DNA from: Vulcanimicrobiota bacterium
GTDB taxonomy: Bacteria > Vulcanimicrobiota > Xenobia > Xenobiales > JADMJV01
NCBI GenBank assembly: GCA_050250895.1
Contig: JBFWNU010000001.1
Location: 2,692,891-2,756,890, forward strand
DNA: 64,000 nt
Direction of reading: 5' to 3'
Shown here: positions 728-64,000 of the stretch, piece by piece
Layout of the letters: the number at the start of each line of letters is the position of its first letter
How positions within the stretch are numbered: position 1 is the stretch's first letter
Program-made: the position numbers and the translations under genes
The notes under the pieces: generated by a model
Told to the model about the DNA's origin: nothing
The model's input: the letters and a program-made list of their open reading frames with translations, nothing else
Databases searched by the model: none

Positions 728-1369
728 ATGAAGATAACCGGCTTTCCTCTCAACGCAAACGCCTACCGGCCCGACCAGTTAACCATCACCAGCCATGAGG
801 CGCCTTCAGACAGCGTGTTCCTCGGCTTTACCACCGTCACCCACGAGGACGAAGGGCTGCTGATGCGCCAGGCCACCCTCAAGAACGGCCTGGAGTTGAC
901 TGAACAGGTCGCCAGCGGCAAGGTAACGGTAGCCCAGGGCGACGAGACGGTGGCTGAATTTGCGGCCAGCAAGTTGCGCCTGCCTCAGGAGAATCGTAAC
1001 TACCTGGTGGTCGAAAACAACGACCTCGAACAGAGGGTCTTCCACAATGGAGGTATTCTCTTGGTCGATCACGCTCAAGTCGGCCACCATCTGGATACCC
1101 CGCCGCGCCATCTTCCTCGCGGTTTTCAGGCCGACCAGTATCTGGTCACGGCCAAAGGGGCCGTGGTCGGTCAGCAGTACGCTCGTAAGGATGCCCGTTT
1201 CTCTTTGCGCAGTCCTCAGTTCGTGACCGCCTGGTTGACCTCCGACGGTAGCGTGCAAGTTCCGAAGTTGGGCGCCAATTTGACCGACTGGAAGACGCTC
1301 AAGCCTTTTGTCACCAACCGTCAACTGGTGCGCACCAAAACCACCGAGGCCAGTGAGTTGACGGTGTAG
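728..1369 (+). CDS. Hypothetical protein
   Basis: ORF 680..1369; likely start ATG 728 (MKITGFPLNANAYRP...). Divergent from the PilC gene; 3' end overlaps the convergent nitrilase gene. No family recognised. Confidence 0.6.
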   Translation: MKITGFPLNANAYRPDQLTITSHEAPSDSVFLGFTTVTHEDEGLLMRQATLKNGLELTEQVASGKVTVAQGDETVAEFAASKLRLPQENRNYLVVENNDLEQRVFHNGGILLVDHAQVGHHLDTPPRHLPRGFQADQYLVTAKGAVVGQQYARKDARFSLRSPQFVTAWLTSDGSVQVPKLGANLTDWKTLKPFVTNRQLVRTKTTEASELTV

Positions 1370-2823
1370 AGGTCCGTGCGGCGGTCGCGCAGGTGGCGCA
1401 CGCTGCCCATTTCGCGGGCCTGGGTCAACGCCTCGAGGTCGAGATCGCTGATGACCACCGTCTCGCTGTCGAACTCGGCTGCCGCGGCCACACCGTCTTT
1501 GGGAAAGGCAAAGTCGCAGGGGGTGCAGACCATGGCTTCGGCATAGTTGCCCACGTTGCCGGCCAGCACGGTATAGACCTCGTTCTCGACCGCTCTCGCC
1601 TGACCCGAGTAGCGAATCCGAAGATAGGCCTTGCGTTCATCGGTACGGAACGGCACGAACAGGATCTCCGCTCCGGCCAGGGTGAGCAGCCTGGCAAGTT
1701 CGGGAAATTCGACATCGTAGCCGACCAGCATGGCCACGCGTCCGTAACCGGTCTCGAAGACCCGCAGTTCACGCCCGGGCGTCAGGCCGTCATGCTGACG
1801 TTCGCGGGGGGTGAGATGCAGTTTCTCTTGGAGGCAGACTTCGCCGCCGGGCGTGAACAGGTGAGCCACGTTATAGAGGCGGCCTTCTTCGGCCACCGGA
1901 AAGCTGCCCGCCAGGATAAACAAGCCCGAGGCCAACGCGGACTGACGAAACAGCTTGAGGTAGTCAGGTCGGGATTCGGCCAGTTTGCCGACGGTGGCCG
2001 GCTCGGAAAGGCCCATCCCGAACAGTTCTGGAAAGACCAGAAAGTGGCAATGATAGCGTTCGGCCGTGGCCACGAAGAAGTTGACCTGCCCAACCACATA
2101 CTGCCATGAGGCCACCGCACCGACCTGAAACTGGGCCACACACACCCTGACCTTGCGCACCGGACGCGTGAGAGGAGCGGCGGCGATGCGTCTGCGTTCG
2201 GGCCGGAAGAACGGGTTCTCGTATTCGAGAAAGGTGGCGTAGTCGAGACTCTGCTCGTCGTGGAGATAGCCCATTTGCACGCCTTTGACCTGATAGCCGG
2301 CCTTGAGGTGGGCATTGAGCGACGAGTCCGAGAGCCGACCCGCCAGCACTTCGGCCACATACTCTTCAGGACTCAGACGTCCCGCCTGGCTCTTGTAGCC
2401 GGGGATGCGACCACCTGCGACCATGCGGCGAAGATTCAGGCGGCGCACCAGTTGCTTGCGAGCCTCGTAGAGTTTGCCAGCCACCCCTTCGCCCCGATGT
2501 CCCGGATGGACCGCGATGTCGGCGCCGTAGAGAGTATCCCCGCTGGGGTCGTGGGTGGTGAACGTTCCCCCGCCCGTGATCTCCTGGTAGGAGTACCAGG
2601 GCGAGTCGGCATCCAGGCTGACGATGAGCGAGGTTGCATAGCCCACCACCTCGTCGCCGCGAGTGGCTACCAGGATTCCGTCGGGAAAGGTCTCGAACTG
2701 CATCCGCAAGAGACGCTCGTCACACAGCGCGCTGGCCGGAAGCCCGGCATAGGCGGCTGCCTGGCAGGCGTAGATCGAGGGAATATCCCGCTCGTTGGCG
2801 CGCCGTACTCTGAGTCTGCTCAC
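1321..2823 (-). CDS. Bifunctional GNAT acetyltransferase / carbon-nitrogen hydrolase (nitrilase family)
   Basis: N-terminal GNAT (DIAVHPGHRGEGVAGKLYEARK, GGRIPGY). C-terminal CN-hydrolase (FPEL, QEKLHLTP, GYDVEFPE, RAVENE, RDRRTDLY). The usual catalytic Cys position (ICYD) reads VGYD. Confidence 0.85.
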   Translation of the reverse strand: MSRLRVRRANERDIPSIYACQAAAYAGLPASALCDERLLRMQFETFPDGILVATRGDEVVGYATSLIVSLDADSPWYSYQEITGGGTFTTHDPSGDTLYGADIAVHPGHRGEGVAGKLYEARKQLVRRLNLRRMVAGGRIPGYKSQAGRLSPEEYVAEVLAGRLSDSSLNAHLKAGYQVKGVQMGYLHDEQSLDYATFLEYENPFFRPERRRIAAAPLTRPVRKVRVCVAQFQVGAVASWQYVVGQVNFFVATAERYHCHFLVFPELFGMGLSEPATVGKLAESRPDYLKLFRQSALASGLFILAGSFPVAEEGRLYNVAHLFTPGGEVCLQEKLHLTPRERQHDGLTPGRELRVFETGYGRVAMLVGYDVEFPELARLLTLAGAEILFVPFRTDERKAYLRIRYSGQARAVENEVYTVLAGNVGNYAEAMVCTPCDFAFPKDGVAAAAEFDSETVVISDLDLEALTQAREMGSVRHLRDRRTDLYTVNSLASVVLVRTS

Positions 2824-2900
2824 TCCGTTGGCTTCGGCTCACGGGCACACCTCGCCCTGCAATTCAGGGCTCTTTGAGGGTCGCGGGCTAGGCTCGAGGC

Positions 2901-4691
2901 ATGCTAATAGGACCCGTGCGCCCAAATACCCGCGTTTCCCACCCTGCTACCCCGGCCAGGGCCGAGGCGAGCTCAGCCCCCCAGGATCAAGTGTCGGTGA
3001 GCCATTCCGGGGCCCGGCCCTGGGACGAGCTACGCAAGGCCGGCCTGATGAGTTCCTTGTCGGGCCTGAGCGGCAATCTGGGTGGAGCCCTCTCGGCAGC
3101 CACCCGCCAGGGTCTGCTTGAGACGTTCGAGCGTCTGCAGGACCAGGGCGTGACTTTCCAATACCGGCGCAAGTTTTATATTCCATTTCTGCAAGACAAG
3201 TTCAAGCAGGTGACCCCCGAGGCTGCCGTGGGATGGCTCGAAAAGCAAAAGGGTGAGGGCTATATCGAGCGTCTCCAGGTGACCGAGAAGGGTGGCCACA
3301 GCTGGCCCGTGCGTCGCCTCGACGAACTCGAGGCGCTCGACGTGGTGGGCGGCGGCACGGCCCCTTCGGCCGAGCAAAAGACCCGGCTCGAGGTGCTCGA
3401 TAGCCTCACCTCCCAGGGCTTTAGCTATTCTCCCGGTGGCTACTACTATGACGAAAAAGTTCCCAAGCTCGATCGGGCTCAGTTGCTGGCGCGGTTGAGT
3501 CGCACCAACCCGGAGTTCACGGTCAAGAAGGAGCAACTCAGCTTTGGGGTCGGTTCCAGCGAGACGTTGCTGGCTATCGAATACTACCACGGCGACCACA
3601 GTGATCGGGGACTGGCCAATCCCCAACGAGCCAAGCTGCTGGCCGAACTCGACCAGCGCGGTCTGCGCGTCGGCGACCGCGACGATAATCTGGTGGCCAA
3701 CTACCTCAGTGACACCGCCGTGATGTGGGTGCGTCGCCCCGACGGGCCCCCCATCGCGGTCGACCTCAACAAGAACCCCAATCCCGACAAGGTGGTGGGC
3801 GAACTCGATACCTATGCCAAGCGCTACCAACGGTTTTTGCAGCCTGCCCTGGAACGTTGCGGGATCAGCAGCGAGTATGTCCCGCAAGAGGTGAAGGCCG
3901 AAGACGGGCCCCACTCCCCCGAGTTTCGCATGGCCCTCTACAGCGAGTTGCTGGGGGCCACGGTCGACTCGGGCGTGCGCGGCTATGACGCCAACAAACC
4001 CGCTAGCGACCTCTATCGCACTTTGATCTCGAGCAGCGAATCGACCTACGACGTGGCCAAGATGGCCAGGCTGATCCTGCCGGCCCTGCAACAGAAGGGC
4101 CCCAACGCGGCTCGGTCGGTGCTCAACCGCACCACCGAAAAGATGGCCAACATGGCCGCCCCCGGCGGCGATCGCAAGACCCTCAGCGACATCTTCTTTG
4201 AACTGCACGACTCGGTGCCCACCATCAGCGCCTGCATGGAGGGGATCGACCTGGTTCGCATCTCGGTGGACGATACCAGCCTCGAGGACCGCATCGCTCT
4301 CTTCAGAGCCATCGGCAACCGGGAATCGGCCGACACCCTGGGCGACGCCGCCGCCCACTACCGGGCGGTGCTGGTGCACAAAGCTCCCAAAGAGAGCCTG
4401 CTCAAAGCCGGTCAGCGCTTCCAGAAGCTTTTAGTGGGCCTGTCCATCGGCCGCAACCAGGGCCGAGCCGTCGAGATCTTCGCCGCCCTGCAGAAGGGCA
4501 TAGCCTCGGGTGACTACACTTCGGACAAGGCCGATCAAGTGCTCAACGAGTTCCTCGGCCATCTGACCGTCGCCAAGACCTTGGAGGAGGCCCTGGCCAC
4601 GGCTCAATTCGCCGGTCACCTCGACGCCGAGCTGACCCTGGACGAGGACACCCTGGTGGTGGGCGGCTTCGAAGTCCCCCGGGCTGACTAG
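2901..4691 (+). CDS. Hypothetical 596-aa protein
   Basis: Long ORF with GAGG RBS. Low-complexity N-terminus ending in PQDQVSVS; helical C-terminal half ending DEDTLVVGGFEVPRAD. No family recognised. Confidence 0.8.
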   Translation: MLIGPVRPNTRVSHPATPARAEASSAPQDQVSVSHSGARPWDELRKAGLMSSLSGLSGNLGGALSAATRQGLLETFERLQDQGVTFQYRRKFYIPFLQDKFKQVTPEAAVGWLEKQKGEGYIERLQVTEKGGHSWPVRRLDELEALDVVGGGTAPSAEQKTRLEVLDSLTSQGFSYSPGGYYYDEKVPKLDRAQLLARLSRTNPEFTVKKEQLSFGVGSSETLLAIEYYHGDHSDRGLANPQRAKLLAELDQRGLRVGDRDDNLVANYLSDTAVMWVRRPDGPPIAVDLNKNPNPDKVVGELDTYAKRYQRFLQPALERCGISSEYVPQEVKAEDGPHSPEFRMALYSELLGATVDSGVRGYDANKPASDLYRTLISSSESTYDVAKMARLILPALQQKGPNAARSVLNRTTEKMANMAAPGGDRKTLSDIFFELHDSVPTISACMEGIDLVRISVDDTSLEDRIALFRAIGNRESADTLGDAAAHYRAVLVHKAPKESLLKAGQRFQKLLVGLSIGRNQGRAVEIFAALQKGIASGDYTSDKADQVLNEFLGHLTVAKTLEEALATAQFAGHLDAELTLDEDTLVVGGFEVPRAD

Positions 4692-56850: not shown

Positions 56851-56947
56851 CTGACCCCACCTCCAGAAAACTTTGGGGCACGGTTCTCGCTCTCGAGGAG
56901 TTAACCCTTTGCAGGTTCACGAGGGGCCGATGAAAAAGGGCGGGCTA

Positions 56948-58648
56948 GTGAAAAGCCTCAGACAGCTAGTAATGGTCGGGTTGGCTTTGTTGATCTGGTC
57001 GGTCGCTCCCGGTTGGGCTCAGCTTTTGCCCGAACCTGACGCCGAGACTCCGACGCCCGTGTCGGTCGAGGCGACCGAATCGCCCGAGGCGGGCAAGACC
57101 AGCCCGCGCGACGCGGTGGCCGACTTCCTCAACATCATGCGTGAGGCAGGTCCTTTGCGGCCGGACCTATACCTGGCTGCTCGCCAGTATCTCGATCTGT
57201 CGGGTGTGCCCAGTGTGGTGCGCGACGAGAAAAGCGTTACCCTGGCCAACGACCTTTACAACGTCTTGATGGCCGCCGATGTGGACCTGGCCAGCCTCCC
57301 CGACACCGACCCCGGTCTCGACCGGGTCCGCGTCTATCGCCAGCCCACCGGTGACGAGATCTACCTGGTGCGGGCCGACGACGGCTCGTGGCAGTTCTCG
57401 GCCGACAGCTTGGCCGGCCTCAACCGCATGTATGGGGTGCTGGCCACCAAAGGCAAACTGGCCAGCCTCGAGGTGCCGGCCTGGCTTGACTTTCGCTTTC
57501 TCGGTCTGGCCGGGCTGCAGTGGTTGCTGCTGGTCTGCATTCCCTTTCTGTCCTGGTTTTTTGGTCGGGTCTGCGTACTGGTGGTTCGTCGGCTGGTGAA
57601 AAAGCGCCTCGAGAGCGAAAGCTTCGGTATCTCGCCCGATGAGCAGAAGAAGGTCCTGCGGCCGCTCGGCTGGTTGATCGGCAGTCTGATGGCCTGGGTC
57701 GGCTTCACGGCTTTGATGCTGCCCGAGGCGATGCTGGTGTTGCTGGCCATCCTCTGCAAACTGGTAGCGACCTCAGCTGCGGTCCTTTCTGCCTACCGCT
57801 TTTGCGACGTGCTGGCCATCTTCTTGCATCACGTGGCTAGCCGGACCGAATCGACCTTCGACGACATGCTGGTGCCGCTGGTGCGCCGCTCCCTCAAGGT
57901 CGTCATCACCATCATCGGCCTGCTCTTCATCGCTCAGAACCTGGATCTCGAGGTGTGGAGCCTGTTCGCCGGATTCTCGGTCGTCGGAGCCATGGTGGCC
58001 CTGGCCGGCCAGGACATGGTCAAGAATTTCTTCGGTTCGCTGACGGTCTTGATGGACCGACCCTTCTCGGTCGGAGATTGGGTTGTAGTGGAAGGCGTGG
58101 AAGGAGTGGTAGAGGATGTGGGCTTTCGCTCGACCCGGATCCGCACGTTCTATGACTCGGTCATCTCGTTGCCGAACTCGCGACTGATCACGGCTCACGT
58201 GGACAATTACGGAGCCCGCACCTATCGGCGCTACACTACCAAGCTCAATCTTCTCTATTCCACTGCGCCCGACCGTCTCGAGGCTTTCTGCGAGGGCATT
58301 CGCGAGTTGGTCCGGATTCATCCCCATACGCGCAAAGATTCCTTTCAGGTGTGGGTCAACGACATGTCCGAATACTCCCTTCAGGTGCTGCTCTATGTCT
58401 TTTGGAAGTGCCCTGATTGGGAGAGCGAACTACGAGAGCGCCATCGCTTCCTGGTGGATGTCCATCGGCTGGCCCGCAGTCTCGAACTCGAGTTTGCTTA
58501 TCCCACCAACACCGTGCACCTCGACCGAGAATCGCCCGAATTGGGCAGCCCCGCGCTGACCCACGAGTCCGGAGAGCTCGCGCGCGAACAGGGCCGAGAG
58601 CTGGTCGGAACCTTGACCGCCGCCAGTCTGCCCGAGACCACTGCTTGA
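56948..58648 (+). CDS. MscS-family mechanosensitive channel with periplasmic N-terminal domain
   Basis: Signal peptide, SPRDAVADFL, ALAGQDMVKNFFG, DRPFSVGDW, VEDVGFRSTRIRT, EFAYPT. Start uncertain (56930 or 56948). Confidence 0.9.
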   Translation: MKSLRQLVMVGLALLIWSVAPGWAQLLPEPDAETPTPVSVEATESPEAGKTSPRDAVADFLNIMREAGPLRPDLYLAARQYLDLSGVPSVVRDEKSVTLANDLYNVLMAADVDLASLPDTDPGLDRVRVYRQPTGDEIYLVRADDGSWQFSADSLAGLNRMYGVLATKGKLASLEVPAWLDFRFLGLAGLQWLLLVCIPFLSWFFGRVCVLVVRRLVKKRLESESFGISPDEQKKVLRPLGWLIGSLMAWVGFTALMLPEAMLVLLAILCKLVATSAAVLSAYRFCDVLAIFLHHVASRTESTFDDMLVPLVRRSLKVVITIIGLLFIAQNLDLEVWSLFAGFSVVGAMVALAGQDMVKNFFGSLTVLMDRPFSVGDWVVVEGVEGVVEDVGFRSTRIRTFYDSVISLPNSRLITAHVDNYGARTYRRYTTKLNLLYSTAPDRLEAFCEGIRELVRIHPHTRKDSFQVWVNDMSEYSLQVLLYVFWKCPDWESELRERHRFLVDVHRLARSLELEFAYPTNTVHLDRESPELGSPALTHESGELAREQGRELVGTLTAASLPETTA

Positions 58649-59472
58649 GAATCCTGGCCCTGCTGCTGCTACTGAGTTGTCAGGCCCTGGCCCAGGTGGG
58701 CAGCCTGGTATCGCTATCGGGCACCGAGGTCAAACTCACCTCGCTGCATTATCGCTTCGACCTGACCGAGCCGAAGGCTCGCCTCAGCCTCGAGGCCACT
58801 CTGGTCAATACCACGGATCGAGCGCTTGACGCCCACTACTTGCTGTTGGCTACCCAGGCGCGTCCTCCGGTCGAACTCGACGGCCGACCCTTACCCGTCG
58901 AGTCGACCTCGCGGGGCGAGTTTTACGGGCATGCCTTTCTGGTGCCCCTGTCACCCCACGAAGAGGCCCGACTGACCTCTCGCGTGACCGTGGTCGGCGA
59001 GCCGGCCTTTGATGCCGGACGGCGTGGCTACCGCTACCATCTGGTGGTGCCGGGAGATGGGACCACCGAGTTCGAGTTCGAGCTGCCCGAGTCTCTTTGG
59101 CTCGGCTCGGCCCTATCGCTCGAGTCCACCGAACCCGGCCGTTATCGGGCTCGGGCCCTGACCGGTCAGGTGGCTTTCACCGTCGGCCCCAAGGCCGACC
59201 TCGGATTCGCCCTGGCGTTGGGCGGGCCCATGGTGGTTTTCTTGCTGGCCAGTCTTATCGCTCTTCGGTGTCGACCGGCCGTGGGCCTGACTCTGGCCAT
59301 GCTGCTCGCCGGCGCGACCTATCAGGCCCTCAGTAAATCGGTCTGGCTGATCTGGTCGACCGAGCCGGCCGTCGAGGACCTGCTGAGGTGGTCGCTGGTG
59401 CTGGCGGTCACGGGGGCCGCCGTGGTCACCACCGCTGCCGGAGGAGTGCGTGAGCCTGCTGAGCGAGAGTGA
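58645..59472 (+). CDS. Exported/membrane hypothetical protein
   Basis: TTG 58645 overlaps the mscS stop; signal peptide LRILALLLLLSCQALA; three C-terminal TM helices. Confidence 0.6.
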   Translation: MRILALLLLLSCQALAQVGSLVSLSGTEVKLTSLHYRFDLTEPKARLSLEATLVNTTDRALDAHYLLLATQARPPVELDGRPLPVESTSRGEFYGHAFLVPLSPHEEARLTSRVTVVGEPAFDAGRRGYRYHLVVPGDGTTEFEFELPESLWLGSALSLESTEPGRYRARALTGQVAFTVGPKADLGFALALGGPMVVFLLASLIALRCRPAVGLTLAMLLAGATYQALSKSVWLIWSTEPAVEDLLRWSLVLAVTGAAVVTTAAGGVREPAERE

Positions 59473-60148
59473 ACTCGAGCGCCGGGACGTGGTGGCCAAT
59501 TGCTCGATGAATCGGGAACGCGGTCTGGCCAGCTATGTCCGAGAACTCCGCTTCGACCCGCTCGGACAACTGGCCGCCGGGGATTGCTGGCTTGACCTTG
59601 GCTGCGGTCAGGGACGGGCTTTGCGCGAGGCAGCCGAGCGTCGCCCGGATCTCCGACTCTTCGGAGTCGACCTGGTATTGCCCGAGCCTTCGCCTGACGT
59701 TGCGTTCGTGGCGGCGGCGGCCCGCCATTATCGACCCCGCCAACGCTTCGGCCTGATCACGATGGTCCACTCACTCCACTATGTGGGCGACAAACTGGGT
59801 TTGCTCGAGCGGGCGTCCCAATGGCTCGAGGAGCGGGGCCGACTGGTGGCCCACCTCGACCTGGCCAACCTGCGCTGGCCTGACGGTCGCCGGGCCGGTC
59901 CCTGGCTGGTCGGCCAGTTGCGTCAGGGTGGTTGGCTCTATCAGGCGCGCCTTCGCCTGCTCTCGCGGGTGGGACCGGCCCCGTTCGGCCCGGAGGTTGA
60001 ATTCCTTGGGGCTGACCCCTCCGCGGGCCCGAACTTCACCGGCCAGGCTGCCGTCCACTCGGTCTACCGTCGCGCACGAACTTTCGACGAAAAACATGTA
60101 ACAAAAGAAATTTCTGGCCGACGTCAAGACCCGAATGGGCAACTTTAG
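59450..60148 (+). CDS. Class I SAM-dependent methyltransferase
   Basis: WLDLGCGQG, FGVDL, FGLITMVHSLHYVGDKL. Confidence 0.85.
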   Translation: MSLLSESELERRDVVANCSMNRERGLASYVRELRFDPLGQLAAGDCWLDLGCGQGRALREAAERRPDLRLFGVDLVLPEPSPDVAFVAAAARHYRPRQRFGLITMVHSLHYVGDKLGLLERASQWLEERGRLVAHLDLANLRWPDGRRAGPWLVGQLRQGGWLYQARLRLLSRVGPAPFGPEVEFLGADPSAGPNFTGQAAVHSVYRRARTFDEKHVTKEISGRRQDPNGQL

Positions 60149-60196
60149 CTCGATCTGGACGGCCTTGGATGCGATTTTGGGAACAGGTTTTCCCGG

Positions 60197-60224
60197 TTGA
60201 CATCGTCTTCTGGATGGATATAAT
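60197..60224 (+). promoter_or_regulatory. Consensus sigma70 promoter
   Basis: TTGACA (60197-60202), 16-nt spacer, TATAAT (60219-60224); predicted start about 60231. Confidence 0.85.
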
Positions 60225-60230
60225 CAAAAT

Positions 60231-61308
60231 CGTTCCGACCACGGAGCCGCCCCGAATCAGCGTGAGTTCGGTGGGGTCTTACACCCCCAGACGGAATGTC
60301 TAAAGGGTAAGCGTTGGGCGAAGACGACATCGCACCCCCGGCGCCCCGGCCGGTCTCCAGGGCAAGGCTCGACTCGGGCCCTAGAACCCTCGCGAGGTTC
60401 GTCCGGCTCCCGAGAATCGAGAGGTCTGGTGCTGGTAGGTATGGCGGCCAGACAGCGGAACACTCAATTGCCGCGGCGCTCCACGATGCCGAAAGAGAGT
60501 GACTTGAGAACCGGTGGTCCGGTTTACGGTGGCAAACCCACCGGCGGCGCTGCTCGAATGCCGTGACAGAGGCGTCTGTCGAACGCGAGCAGGGTAGCTC
60601 TCCACCATAGAGAGCCTGAAGCCTCGATAAGGATTTCGGGGCGAGGCCCGAGACCCAGGCCGGAACCGTGAGGGTAAAGGCTGCCGCTAGTCGGCAGTGC
60701 CGGAGCAGGTCGAAAACGGGAGTCTGGTGCAGGTGAGGTGGCGGCCAGACACGGAGTCGCTCAGGCCGTAAAGAGCGAGGGTTGCGCTCAAACCATAGAA
60801 GCGCCCAGAGCCGACTGGTTAAAACGGGAGTCGTCGCAACGACTTAAGCCGACGGGTCGTGGAGTGCCCGAGGGTTGGAAATCTCGCGCCTGACGTGAGA
60901 ACGTCGAATAGCGAGCGCGGAACTGCTCGAGTGCCGTGGGGGGTGACCGCCAGAAAAGCGAGCAGGGGTAGCATGCATACCTGAGATATGCGCAGCGCTT
61001 CGTCTGAAGACATTCGAAGCGAGGCCCGACGCTCTTGCCGGAACCGTGAGGGGAAAGGCCGACTGGATTCGTCCAGTTCGGTGCCGGTCAAGGCGGACCA
61101 CGGGAGCCTGGTGCAGGAGAGGCGGCGGCCAGGCAGCGGAGCTATCGCTTGCCGCGACGACCACTAATCGTCGAAAGAGATAGACAGCAGATGTCTCGAC
61201 TGCCTAACAATGAGACGACCCTCCGCTTCGGCGAAGGGACCCCGACGCCTGAGTGGTGGCGGTCGGGAACCGAGAGGCGCTCCCTGGCAGGGCGCCTCTT
61301 TCCTTTTT
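60231..61308 (+). ncRNA. Putative large structured non-coding RNA (~1.07 kb) with three tandem homologous modules; family not recognised
   Basis: Own promoter and terminator, no credible CDS, internal triplication with compensatory base changes in stems and a pseudoknot, 5'/3' end complementarity. Confidence 0.75.
61272..61308 (+). terminator. Intrinsic terminator
   Basis: GAGAGGCGC-TCCCTGGCAGG-GCGCCTCTT followed by TCCTTTTT. Confidence 0.8.
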
Positions 61309-61410
61309 CCGGGGGGCGCGTGGGAGTGGTGGAAATCGCCAGGTGCAGTAGGCGTGGATGCTTAGCTGCGGGCGCTTTGGAACTTTGGGGTCGGGGCTGA
61401 CGAGACAGAG

Positions 61411-61686
61411 ATGGGACTAGCGTTGCGGTTTGCCGGACGGCCGCTGCTTTTTCGGAAGCTGGTGGGCTTGGACGGAGGATGCACGCTGGACGGGATCGCG
61501 GATTTGCAGAACGCGATTCGCGAGGAGTTGGGGTTCGGAGAGCCTGTCGTGGTCCCGGACCGTGGGGCTACCTTCTTTGCCACCGTGGGGATGCCGTTTA
61601 CGCTACATCCGGAGGCCCAGTTCCACGAGGTTCAGCTGCGAAAGCTGAAGGATATTCGGTCAAAGTTCCCGCTGGTTGAGCGGTGA
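61411..61686 (+). CDS. Small hypothetical protein
   Basis: 91-aa ATG ORF after the terminator; no family recognised. Confidence 0.45.
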   Translation: MGLALRFAGRPLLFRKLVGLDGGCTLDGIADLQNAIREELGFGEPVVVPDRGATFFATVGMPFTLHPEAQFHEVQLRKLKDIRSKFPLVER

Positions 61687-61757
61687 CGCAATCTGTGCCG
61701 ACTTGGCTTGGTCGGACCCTTCCACCTCCGCGTTAAAACTCCAGCAAGCACCCCCGG

Positions 61758-62591
61758 TCAGGCGGTGACGAAGTCGACCTCGATCGAACGGGGGATGATG
61801 CCGGCCGAGTGGCCTCGCGAGAGCAGTTCACGCACGGCGGCGCGGCCGGCCTGACCGAAGTCGAGAGTCGTGTCGTTGACGTACATCTCGACGAAGCGGT
61901 CGCAGGTGTCCTTGTCGAGCCCTCGGCCCCACTGCAGAGCGTAGTCCAGGGCCTCGTCGCGGTGGTCGAGGCCGTAGCGGATGGAGCGGTCGAGGATGTC
62001 GGCGACCTGGGCGATGCGTTCGGGGCCCAGCGAGCGGCGCACGATGGTCACTCCCAGGGGCAGAGGCAGCCCGGTCTGCTCTTGCCACCATTGGCCCAGG
62101 TCGACCAGTAGCTCGAGGCCTTCGGCGGCATAGGTCAACTGGCCCTCGTGGATGACCAAACCGGCACTGGCCTCACCCGAGCGGACCGTCTCGAGGATTT
62201 GGTCGAAGGGAACCACTTTGTAGGGGAAGTCTCCGGCGTAGAGGCGGGCTACCAGGAAGGCCGTGGTCAGCTCGCCGGGCACGGCTATCGGGCCGGCAAA
62301 GGCCTCTTCCGCCTCGACCCCGGGGCGGGTCACGAAGATCGGGCCGTAACCCTGGCCCAGGCTGGCCCCCGCCGCCAGCAAGGCATAGTCGTCGGCCAGG
62401 TGGGCATAGGCATGCAGAGAGACGGCCGTGACGTCGAGCTTTTGCTCGAAGGCCCACTCGTTGAGGGTCTGGATGTCCTCCATGACGTGCTCGAATTCGA
62501 ACTCGCCCATGTCGATGCGCCGCTGCGCGGTGGCGCAGAACATGAAGGCGTCGTCAGGGTCGGGGCTGTGACCTACGCGAATCAGGGTCAC
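61758..62591 (-). CDS. mqnD: 1,4-dihydroxy-6-naphthoate synthase (futalosine menaquinone pathway)
   Basis: VGHSPDPDDAFMF, DIQTLN, GYGP, IAVPGELTTA, GLVIHEGQLTY, TGLPLPLG, MYVN. Confidence 0.93.
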   Translation of the reverse strand: MTLIRVGHSPDPDDAFMFCATAQRRIDMGEFEFEHVMEDIQTLNEWAFEQKLDVTAVSLHAYAHLADDYALLAAGASLGQGYGPIFVTRPGVEAEEAFAGPIAVPGELTTAFLVARLYAGDFPYKVVPFDQILETVRSGEASAGLVIHEGQLTYAAEGLELLVDLGQWWQEQTGLPLPLGVTIVRRSLGPERIAQVADILDRSIRYGLDHRDEALDYALQWGRGLDKDTCDRFVEMYVNDTTLDFGQAGRAAVRELLSRGHSAGIIPRSIEVDFVTA

Positions 62592-64000
62592 GTGGGCTGG
62601 TCCTTGGTCAGGCCCGTCTTCTCGGGGCCCGACCGAGCCTTCTCGTCGCGCACGATGTTGAGGTTCATGCGCGGTTTGGTGAGATAGGTGTTTTGCTTCT
62701 CTTGCACCGACAGTTCAAAGTTGGAGGTGAACACCAGCGAGTCGGTGGGGCAAGCCTCGGTGCACAAGCCGCAATAGCAGCAACGGGCCAGATCGATGGA
62801 GTAGATCTCGGGGTATTCCCAGCCCTCGTCGTTTTCAGGCGAGGCCAGGTGAATGCAGCTGTCGGGACAGGCGTCGACGCAAACCCCGCAACCCACGCAC
62901 ATTTCGGCCGCGCAGCCGTAACAGCGCTTGCCCTCGCGGCGGGCCATGTCGAGCGAGAAGCCCAGGTCAAGCTCGTCGAAGGTCTGAATGCGCACCTCCC
63001 CCGGAATCTTCGGCATCGGCACTTGATAGTTCATCCGCCGGAAGGGCTTCTGCTTGGGCTCTTTGGACCAGGGTCGCGGGTCGACGAAAGCGCTCTCGGG
63101 CGGGCTCTCGACCTCACCCAATCCGGCGCGCCGCGAGACCACTCCCGAACTCAGGGCCGGAGCCGTGCCGTCGACGTAGGGAGTGACGTGCAGCTCAGCG
63201 TGGCCCGACTTCTCATAGCCGTAGAGAAAGGGAAAGCTGTCGGGGCAGCAGTCGTATTTTCTGGCGATGCCGATGCACACCGCATCGGCCATGCCGATGG
63301 CTTCGATGATGGTCGAAACCTTGGCCACGTCGCCGCAAGCCCACACGCCCTCGCGAGTGGTCTTGCCCTGTTCGTCAACCCGGATGGTGCCGTTGCGGTT
63401 GACCTTGATGTCGTCAGGCAGCCAGGGTATGTCGACCATCCGGCCCAGGGCCGTAATGATCATTCCGCACTCCAGAAGATATTCCGAGCCGGCGATGGGG
63501 CGGGGACTGCGCCGGCCCGAGCGGTCTTTCTCGCCCAGGCGATTCTTGATCACTTCCAGGCCGACCAGCTGGCCGTCTTGGATAATGATACGGTGGGGCG
63601 ACGTCAGCCACTCGAGGTGGATGCCCTCCTCCTCGCCATCTTCAATCTCTTCTTCTTCAGAAGGCATCTCGCGGCGGGTGCGCCGATAGATCATGACCAC
63701 CTCGGCCCCCATCCGGCGACAGGTGCGAGCGCAGTCAAAGCCGGTGTTGCCGCCCCCAACCACCACGACCTTTTTGGGCACTTCGGTGAGGCGGCCGCGA
63801 ATCTGCTCTTCGAGAAAGTCCTCGCCGTAATAGACGTAGGGCTTCTCTTCCGAGGCCAATCCCAGATGGTACGGCTTCCAGGCCCCGGCTGCGATGATGA
63901 CCTCGTGATGCCGCTTCTCGAGCTCTTCGAGGGTGACGTCGTTGCCCACTTCTACCGACAGGTGCAGGGTGATACCGTCGAGCTTGTGGATCCGTTCCAT
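62588..64000 (-). CDS. FAD/NAD(P)H-dependent oxidoreductase (GltD-like) fused to a C-terminal 2x[4Fe-4S] NuoI-like domain; 5' end outside the window
   Basis: VVVVGGGNTGFDCART, YRRTRREMP, CGDV, EGKRCYGC; CVGCGVCVDACP and CCYCGLCTEACP...FEL. Confidence 0.88.
   Translation of the reverse strand: MERIHKLDGITLHLSVEVGNDVTLEELEKRHHEVIIAAGAWKPYHLGLASEEKPYVYYGEDFLEEQIRGRLTEVPKKVVVVGGGNTGFDCARTCRRMGAEVVMIYRRTRREMPSEEEEIEDGEEEGIHLEWLTSPHRIIIQDGQLVGLEVIKNRLGEKDRSGRRSPRPIAGSEYLLECGMIITALGRMVDIPWLPDDIKVNRNGTIRVDEQGKTTREGVWACGDVAKVSTIIEAIGMADAVCIGIARKYDCCPDSFPFLYGYEKSGHAELHVTPYVDGTAPALSSGVVSRRAGLGEVESPPESAFVDPRPWSKEPKQKPFRRMNYQVPMPKIPGEVRIQTFDELDLGFSLDMARREGKRCYGCAAEMCVGCGVCVDACPDSCIHLASPENDEGWEYPEIYSIDLARCCYCGLCTEACPTDSLVFTSNFELSVQEKQNTYLTKPRMNLNIVRDEKARSGPEKTGLTKDQPT

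Follow-up and report, generated by a model that had tools for sequence, protein, structure and literature searches.

A tandem-module structured RNA gene of a family absent from Rfam in a Vulcanimicrobiota genome

Large structured RNAs are rare in bacteria and, to our knowledge, fewer than a dozen classes of them have been recognized. RNase P RNA, group II introns, OLE, GOLLD and ROOL have each taught something new about what RNA is capable of, and GOLLD and ROOL are often borne by phages. The Csr/Rsm sponges (CsrB, RsmX/Y/Z) are RNAs that act in trans, and rsm genes carry GacA boxes upstream. GOLLD, ROOL and OLE are reported to form homo-oligomeric complexes (PMC12286853). Here we describe a gene with a predicted transcript of ~1.07 kb at 60231-61308 (+) of a 64,000-nt stretch of the genome of a Vulcanimicrobiota bacterium (contig JBFWNU010000001.1, positions 2,692,891 to 2,756,890), which we call the window. 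This gene almost certainly encodes a structured non-coding RNA (ncRNA) built of tandem modules, and its family is absent from Rfam.

The window RNA shares several traits with GOLLD, ROOL, OLE and raiA: it comes from a stand-alone gene, its long and densely structured chain keeps many unpaired bases conserved, it is non-coding and found in RNA libraries, and its function cannot be read from its sequence. In contrast, it matches none of their Rfam models and is composed of tandem homologous modules, a build that we do not know to have been described for any of these four RNAs. Its family comprises 3-8 paralogs per genome in three families of one small class and, unlike GOLLD and ROOL, its 23-nt hairpin pattern was not found in viral contigs. 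With CsrB and RsmX/Y/Z it has in common the repeated units and the existence as multiple paralogs that have promoters and terminators of their own. However, their unit is a GGA hairpin of ~20 nt, while that of the present family is a pseudoknotted domain 170-260 nt long. GGA-containing loops were noticed by eye only. We rejected the reading as a Csr/Rsm sponge because CsrA (PF02599) is encoded in only 6 of the 21 RNA-bearing genomes; in the class as a whole it was found in 7 of 44 genomes, one of them without the RNA. Tandem riboswitch aptamers such as the glycine riboswitch also place homologous structured domains next to each other in one transcript, but the window RNA is no 5' leader, has its own terminator and no common downstream gene, and the domains in its family number from 3 to at least 11 instead of two. 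The window RNA is a member of neither the large ornate RNA families nor the Csr/Rsm sponges. By analogy, its general character appears closest to that of the former, and its logic of repeats and paralogs is most like that of the latter.

An initial annotation of the window, made from the letters alone, had seen none of several known RNA signatures in this region and proposed a search with cmscan. Using Rfam 15, whose families include GOLLD, ROOL, OLE, raiA, HEARO, group I and II introns, riboswitches and ribozymes, we obtained no match at the gathering score in the 64-kb window, and at E<=10 the region 60100-61420 gave only four chance-level matches (best 18.7 bits, E 0.99). Neither did any of 18 related loci (9 paralog or relative loci and 9 distant members) match an Rfam family, so the absence of known signatures held for the full region and for its relatives. 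Regarding RNase P RNA, the genome has its own at C1:1125467-1125845 (305 bits), and the window RNA does not match RF00010. ARAGORN found no tRNA or tmRNA gene in 60100-61400. Full-text searches of the literature gave no description of such an RNA, although supplement lists of RNA-discovery papers may hold it under another name, and passages of PMC5737381 gave none either.

A sigma-70-type promoter, TTGACA-N16-TATAAT, lies at 60197-60224 (+) and agrees with the consensus at 12/12 positions, as first annotated. It is the sole promoter-like site in 59500-62000, a stretch for which shuffled sequences gave a mean of 0.3 sites at a looser scan threshold. Transcription is predicted to start at ~60231-60232 (+), at the 5' strand of a closing helix (GTTCCGACC, 60232-60240). 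Next, at 60240-60299, comes the conserved 5' leader (CACGGAGYCGCCCC...). It contains two short hairpins and forms invariant columns in an alignment of near-full-length homologs (A2, see below), and its helices 3 and 5 show compensatory changes. At the other end, the intrinsic terminator sits at 61272-61308 (+), also where it had been annotated, with a G+C-rich stem (61272-61300) of 11 pairs, 7 of them G-C, and a T-tract reaching 61308. The stem covaries among homologs (helix 58 of A2; 10 pairs, 5 with double changes). With 63.1% GC in the unit and 63.6% in the window, the composition is ordinary.

These limits are kept in the paralogs and relatives, in agreement with the proposal of a stand-alone gene with its own promoter and terminator. 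By BLAST against the window's own 9.5-Mb genome, we identified six copies of 1.08-1.16 kb including the window one, and the window copy is collinear with the other five from promoter to terminator. All six align from the TTGAC(A/G) -35 box through the leader to the final hairpin and T-run. One of them, at C1:3139335-3140470 (-), is a close paralog of the window copy, and the remaining four, which we refer to as type A, are 1150-1155 nt long when counted from a 5' anchor that they share through to the terminator's end. The copies are 61-88% identical. The spacing from TTGAC(A/G) to the CACGG of the leader is constant in 11/15 homologs; in the other four the stretch inspected was too short.

Between leader and terminator, the RNA is a repeated structure. 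It contains internal direct repeats of 77, 55 and 36 nt (71-81% identity), spaced by 378, 384 and 681 nt. We built a covariance model, R1, from an alignment (A1) of 19 copies of module 3 (60955-61135), with one region per locus and excluding partial or weak matches in L014 (second match), L017, L024, L025 and L026. Searched with R1, the window RNA consists of a leader of ~65 nt and a head-to-tail array of a 170-200-nt module, with three clear and two degenerate copies. Module 1 (60300-60454, +) is diverged (33 bits, E 3.2e-8, filters off), carries the direct repeats D3 and D8 and ends in a hairpin at 60424-60454. Module 2 (60582-60751, +; 84.8 bits, E 1.1e-22) contains CAGGGTAGC at 60590-60598, the GNRA hairpin ACCGTGAGG at 60665-60673 and a last hairpin at 60722-60751, and is linked to module 3 by the repeats D1, D2, D4 and D9. 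Module 3 (60955-61135, +; 181 bits) is the best-conserved part of the RNA: its pseudoknot hairpin (CAGGGGTAGC...ACC) begins at 60963, its GNRA hairpin has the same sequence as that of module 2 (61043-61051) and its last hairpin lies at ~61106-61135. The two degenerate segments match weakly, one at 60768-60844 (+; 18.7 bits, E 3.3e-4, filters off) and the other at 61180-61269 (+; 15.4 bits, E 0.0027), the latter running into the closing helix, whose 3' strand forms its end. The window RNA has the promoter, the leader, the at least three tandem R1 modules with the CAGGGGUAGC...ACC hairpin and the terminator by which we define the family. The initial annotation had considered either a new class or a multimerised member of a known one. 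Multimerisation is borne out by the direct repeats and by R1, whereas the unit that is multiplied is a new module and not a known RNA.

All modules follow the same plan, which consists, in order, of a pseudoknotted hairpin, a second hairpin, a junction with a GNRA tetraloop and a hairpin with a purine-rich internal loop. When 40 modules of five genera were aligned (A3), we found CAGGGGUAGC followed by a hairpin with ACC in its loop, GAGGCC, and GGAG preceding the hairpin with the purine-rich internal loop in every module, and the conserved unpaired motifs recur across all 40. The ACC of the loop pairs back to the GG of the CAGGGGUAGC immediately 5' of the hairpin, which makes the pseudoknot. 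One pair of this pseudoknot, between the fourth base of CAGGGG and the last base of the loop ACC, was G:C in 347, A:U in 6 and A/C in one of 354 metagenomic instances, and G:C in 40, A:U in 6 and A/C in one of 47 instances from genome loci, with no G/U in either set. Among the 19 module-3 sequences, ~70 of ~180 positions are invariant and the loop of the junction hairpin is GNRA in 19/19 (GUGA 8, GCGA 8, GCAA 3) on a stem that covaries. Across genera module 3 shows 85-93% identity over 80 nt, compared with ~70% elsewhere in the RNA. This module may be the one functional core, with the other copies being structural.

Base-pair covariation is strong and substantiates the original call of a structured RNA. 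RNAalifold gave 35 pairs for A1, 10 of them with compensatory changes. For A2 we took 15 of the 17 near-full-length homologs then known, leaving out L019 and L021 because they are cut by the locus end, and obtained with RNAalifold 268 pairs in 58 helices. The cells of A2 are paired in 89.6% of cases, compared with 37-39% when the partners are slid, and those of A4 (the best 150 of 289 metagenomic module matches) in 91.5%, compared with 27-42%, percentages that are inflated because each structure was derived from or fitted to its own alignment. The gap between these alignments and their controls is large despite the fitting. Double changes were seen in 154/268 pairs of A2, against 89.3 +/- 5.3 in shuffles (0/500 reached 154), a control that overstates significance because the sequences are related, and against 63-80 with slid partners; in A4 they were seen in 35/37 pairs. 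Length differences among the homologs of A2 are located in the tips of hairpins.

The closing helix had also been proposed from the sequence, and its coordinates proved right. It pairs GTTCCGACC (60232-60240) with GGTCGGGAAC (61261-61270), with a duplex energy of -15.6 kcal/mol, so that the first nine bases of the RNA pair just before the terminator and both ends of the array are held together. Among the six paralogs it takes three forms that differ by compensatory changes, CCGACC/GGTCGG, CCGGTC/GGCCGG (with one G-U) and CCAGTC/GACTGG. Convincing partners came out of a simple duplex search for these six copies and for G013b and G014, but for none of seven other relatives.

We found no sign of coding. 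The longest open reading frames (ORFs) overlapping the unit encode 106, 90, 83 and 75 amino acids on both strands, with no Pfam match among the window ORFs concerned, and the ORFs over the six genomic copies vary in position, strand and length. None of the 8/8 homolog pairs analyzed shows a 3-base periodicity of substitutions (chi-square p 0.35-0.96). Gaps with lengths in multiples of 3 make up just 0-11 of the 10-36 internal gaps per pair, and lengths of 1 mod 3 account for as many as 8/10, 10/13 and 20/36 of them in given examples. The unconserved frames, the even phases and the gap lengths speak against a protein-coding gene, and the description of this region as holding only short, motif-less ORFs stands.

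The family extends well beyond this genome. A profile of the six copies retrieved full-length homologs of 1.05-1.5 kb in relatives, as a near-full-length single match in nine loci and as two pieces in two. The close paralog has five R1 modules and one type A copy has four, while 4-6 were counted in each of the RNAs from a different genus, family and order of the class. For instance, locus L049 from genus g2 presents a promoter at 964-992, six modules, with gaps of only 13-17 nt between them in places, and a terminator at 2387-2414; the same layout of promoter, modules and terminator is found in the metagenome contig L068. At E<=1e-4, the module is present in 21 of the 44 genomes of the class. 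Carriers belong to three large-genome families, with 3-8 paralogs per genome: f1 (14/15 genomes plus the window's own), f2 (5/5) and f5 (1/1). The single f1 genome without it is 75% complete. Families f3 (0/19; genomes of 2-4.7 Mb) and f4 (0/3) gave no R1 match. Outside the class, 107 genomes of the phylum had no R1 match at a strict E<=1e-9, a cut-off at which weak matches would be missed. The 23-nt hairpin pattern, an exact pattern that catches near-consensus copies only, was found in 17/44 genomes of the class and in 0/357 other genomes of the phylum. A planctomycete origin of the window's genome is weakly opposed by the lack of a PF07596 match in it, as the control genomes gave no match either.

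The same pattern matched at least 120 metagenome contigs, the first 100 of which contain 289 modules (R1, E<=1e-6); this frequency in environmental assemblies suggests that the RNA is abundant and belongs to a lineage that is uncultured or has been little studied. Among genome contigs, a pattern based on the last hairpin proved too restrictive, matching just 4 loci, all of them relatives already found. Some arrays are long and regular: L080 (2859 nt) has 11 modules with a period of 237-259 nt and a mutual identity of 64-83%, L072 has a period of 224-228 nt, and in L132 and L133 (3.5-3.9 kb) R1 finds ten or more modules along their length. We also observed that in eight contigs of 3.0-3.9 kb (L132, L133, L069, L070, L071, L089, L091 and L144) the matches to the model run nearly end to end, with at least ten modules each. 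Given this near-complete tiling, some members of the family measure at least 3.5 kb.

Regarding transcription, parts of the stretch occur in 21 public runs from 9 studies, all from sludge or wastewater, nine of which are on record as RNA. We compared the contigs of four runs: X5 and X7 (RNA, one study), X17 (RNA, another study) and X1 (DNA by guess). X5 has contigs on 60258-60719 and 60690-61278, and X7 on 60286-60715, 60689-61105 and 61105-61203, with word depths of 1162-3907 for both runs. A single 928-nt contig of X17 covers 60361-61288 at a depth of 358, and a whole 1038-nt contig of X1 covers 60240-61276. The RNA-library contigs bridge module boundaries. Being 90-99% identical to the window, the contigs come from near relatives. 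Contigs cannot prove RNA ends, strand or level, and we take them as presence in RNA libraries plus a weak hint at the ends, no more. In the four runs the flanks 58000-60207 and 61312-63500 are uncovered or have a depth of at most 10 where the RNA is covered, a contrast that is no evidence of relative expression because the runs were found via the RNA itself and contig depth cannot rank genes. Many metagenome contigs measure 1.0-1.9 kb, and several of them start a few bases from the conserved 5' leader or inside it, which may be a sign that they are assembled transcripts. The initial annotation had spoken of an abundantly transcribed, stand-alone RNA. The RNA libraries of two studies contain it, whereas abundance is only weakly shown, since contigs can prove neither levels nor ends.

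How such an RNA might act can be approached from its build. The gene at 60231-61308 is transcribed from its own consensus promoter and ended at its own terminator. We propose that its RNA would act in trans as a multivalent scaffold, with each module offering the same conserved surface, so that a single RNA could hold the same partner, in all likelihood a protein, several times over. Module number, from 3 to at least 11 in relatives, would then set the valency. The repeated conserved surface, the variable number of modules, the paralogs and the end-joining helix suggest that the RNA works through multivalency; the idea of a scaffold is inferred from the recurrence of the same unpaired motifs, the varying number, the retention of the module and the several paralogs. 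Long eukaryotic RNAs offer a parallel: in NORAD and in the A-repeats of Xist, each repeated unit binds one copy of a partner. The multivalent logic proposed for the window RNA is the same, but those RNAs belong to another domain of life, have short and mostly sequence-defined units and share no homology with it. Taken as a whole, the statement of an ncRNA gene whose product is a multivalent scaffold seems to us somewhat probable; action in trans as a scaffold or sponge binding several copies of one partner is, by itself, our best guess, a tentative one that may well be wrong.

Several observations weigh against this proposal, or temper the evidence behind it. Only CsrA was tested as a candidate partner, and 15/21 carriers lack it. 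The neighbours of the six copies are unrelated, among them an MscS-type channel, a methyltransferase, an esterase, a GGDEF protein, a pyroglutamyl peptidase, an S1/P1 nuclease and a WD40 protein; gene context hence gives no functional hint. Module conservation in the window lineage is unequal, with 181 bits for module 3, 33 for module 1 and 85 for module 2, and such a lead of module 3 is a poor fit to equivalent binding sites. The long-range helices 1 and 18 proposed by RNAalifold show zero double changes in A2, and we make no claim for them. To these we add the inflated pairing percentages, the relatedness of the A2 sequences and the limits of the library contigs given above.

One could argue that the modules bind each other instead of a partner. 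Linked modules would dock, for instance with the GNRA tetraloop of one entering a receptor in the next, and together with the closing helix give a compact, pseudo-symmetric particle made of RNA only, an intramolecular counterpart of the homo-oligomers reported for GOLLD, ROOL and OLE (PMC12286853), whose function could be, for example, encapsulation or structural support. The tetraloop kept on a covarying stem in 19/19 sequences speaks for this, as do the end helix that covaries among paralogs and the regular arrays of L072 and L080, where modules that are only 64-83% identical suggest selection on each copy. Nevertheless, a tetraloop receptor was not identified, the closing helix was missed by the simple duplex search in seven relatives, and a module number of 3 to at least 11 argues against one fixed closed symmetry; we regard this reading, the main rival, as unlikely. 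If each module were instead an aptamer for a small molecule or ion, the RNA would buffer, store or report its ligand. A pseudoknot, a multi-helix junction and the ~70 invariant positions of ~180, many of them unpaired, would suit such a domain, yet this RNA is not a leader, since it ends at its own terminator and the next gene is on the other strand in 3/6 copies, it matches no riboswitch family, and its neighbours suggest no ligand, all of which makes an array of ligand-binding domains improbable. A further alternative is a precursor from which self-cleavage or an RNase would release active single-module RNAs of ~200 nt, in the manner of ribozyme-bearing tandem satellite transcripts. Head-to-tail units, the short linkers of some relatives (13-17 nt in L049) and highly conserved junction bases in each unit are what a precursor would show; against it, contigs bridge the module boundaries (X5 on 60690-61278, X17 on 60361-61288, X1 on 60240-61276), more than one module is found on many metagenome contigs, there is no match to a self-cleaving ribozyme family, and the closing helix implies that the molecule functions as a whole. 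We consider a precursor decidedly improbable.

Finally, the region may hold no RNA gene of its own, and be a selfish repeat or the remnant of a mobile element, a set of small protein genes, or the cis-acting leader of the next gene. Six copies per genome and an inverted repeat of 9-10 nt near the ends would be expected of a selfish repeat. However, the copies are only 61-88% identical and keep their pairs through double changes, conservation reaches past the inverted repeat to the promoter and terminator, which both lie outside it, and the end helix is kept in one paralog by a G-U pair, an RNA-level feature. Besides, there is neither a transposase nor any other common neighbour gene, and the hairpin pattern is missing from viral contigs. 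ORFs of up to 106 amino acids would be the small genes, and they lack a conserved frame and codon periodicity. A cis-regulatory leader or riboswitch was rejected on account of the RNA's own terminator, the unrelated neighbours and the downstream gene, which is convergent in 3/6 copies. Taken together these explanations are largely refuted, the mobile element less firmly than the rest, and we give them hardly any credence.

We rate the window RNA as a new class of bacterial RNA, whose build, a covalent array of homologous pseudoknotted modules with a copy number of 3 to at least 11 and several genes per genome, was not found in Rfam 15 or by full-text searches of the literature. The natural series of module numbers is a built-in experiment on valency, with a 180-nt module and a ~1.04-kb transcript to work on. 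A bolder view, rather unlikely as it stands, is that it would found a class of giant, concatemeric RNAs in bacteria, with linked modules packed into a defined RNA-only particle or a multivalent platform that forms a major component of the cell. If true, members of the class would measure between 1 kb and 3.9 kb or more and have 3 to at least 11 modules, their modules would pack via tetraloop contacts and the end-joining helix, and the duplication of a pseudoknot domain within a gene would be the RNA analogue of tandem-repeat protein domains, all in a major component of a little-studied, large-genome clade from soil and sludge.

The paralogs present some further particularities. An element of ~45 nt resembling an inverted repeat (TTGTGAAC...ACACAG..CTGTGGGTAACCCGGTGGACAAAC) precedes the four type A copies, ~85-130 nt upstream of where they start, at C1:114741-114762 (+), C1:1926443-1926464 (+), C2:144352-144331 (-) and C2:139355-139334 (-), and also in loci L032, L033 and L034. 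Its 22-nt core matches at these four of four sites and nowhere else in the 9.5-Mb genome, and the window copy and its close paralog are without it. This element, present in 4/6 paralogs, resembles the GacA boxes of rsm genes, and it may be a putative binding site of a regulator of the type A genes only. Two type A copies, C2:138089-139242 (-) and C2:143090-144239 (-), lie on the same strand 3.8 kb apart with three to four unrelated ORFs between them, which points to a local duplication. In another genome (L012, G013:C57), two RNA genes of the family are found head-to-head ~10 nt apart, at ~1211-2696 (-) and 2706-3071 (+); the second is cut off at the locus end, and the arrangement would be a divergent pair.

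Regarding the surroundings of the RNA genes, clustering of the flanking ORFs of 27 loci gave mostly spurious frames over the RNA, and only one small ORF was syntenic, in 3 loci. This ORF, of 124-137 amino acids and with no Pfam match, is located downstream of a type A paralog (L032:7413-7787 (+), that is, C1:116412-116786) and downstream of the RNA in G013 and G014 (L020:1985-2395 and L016:2398-2826), and probably reflects plain synteny of orthologous loci. In the window, the RNA gene lies between a methyltransferase gene (59450-60148) and an MqnA-like gene (61758-62591, -). Right after the terminator there is an ORF of 91 amino acids (61411-61686, +) with no Pfam match and no usable match in the Protein Atlas. 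Further upstream, an ORF of 351 amino acids with no Pfam match (58417-59472, +) shares ~230 nt, in another frame, with the 3' end of the gene for the MscS-type channel (56873-58648, +), and the start chosen for one or the other is probably wrong.

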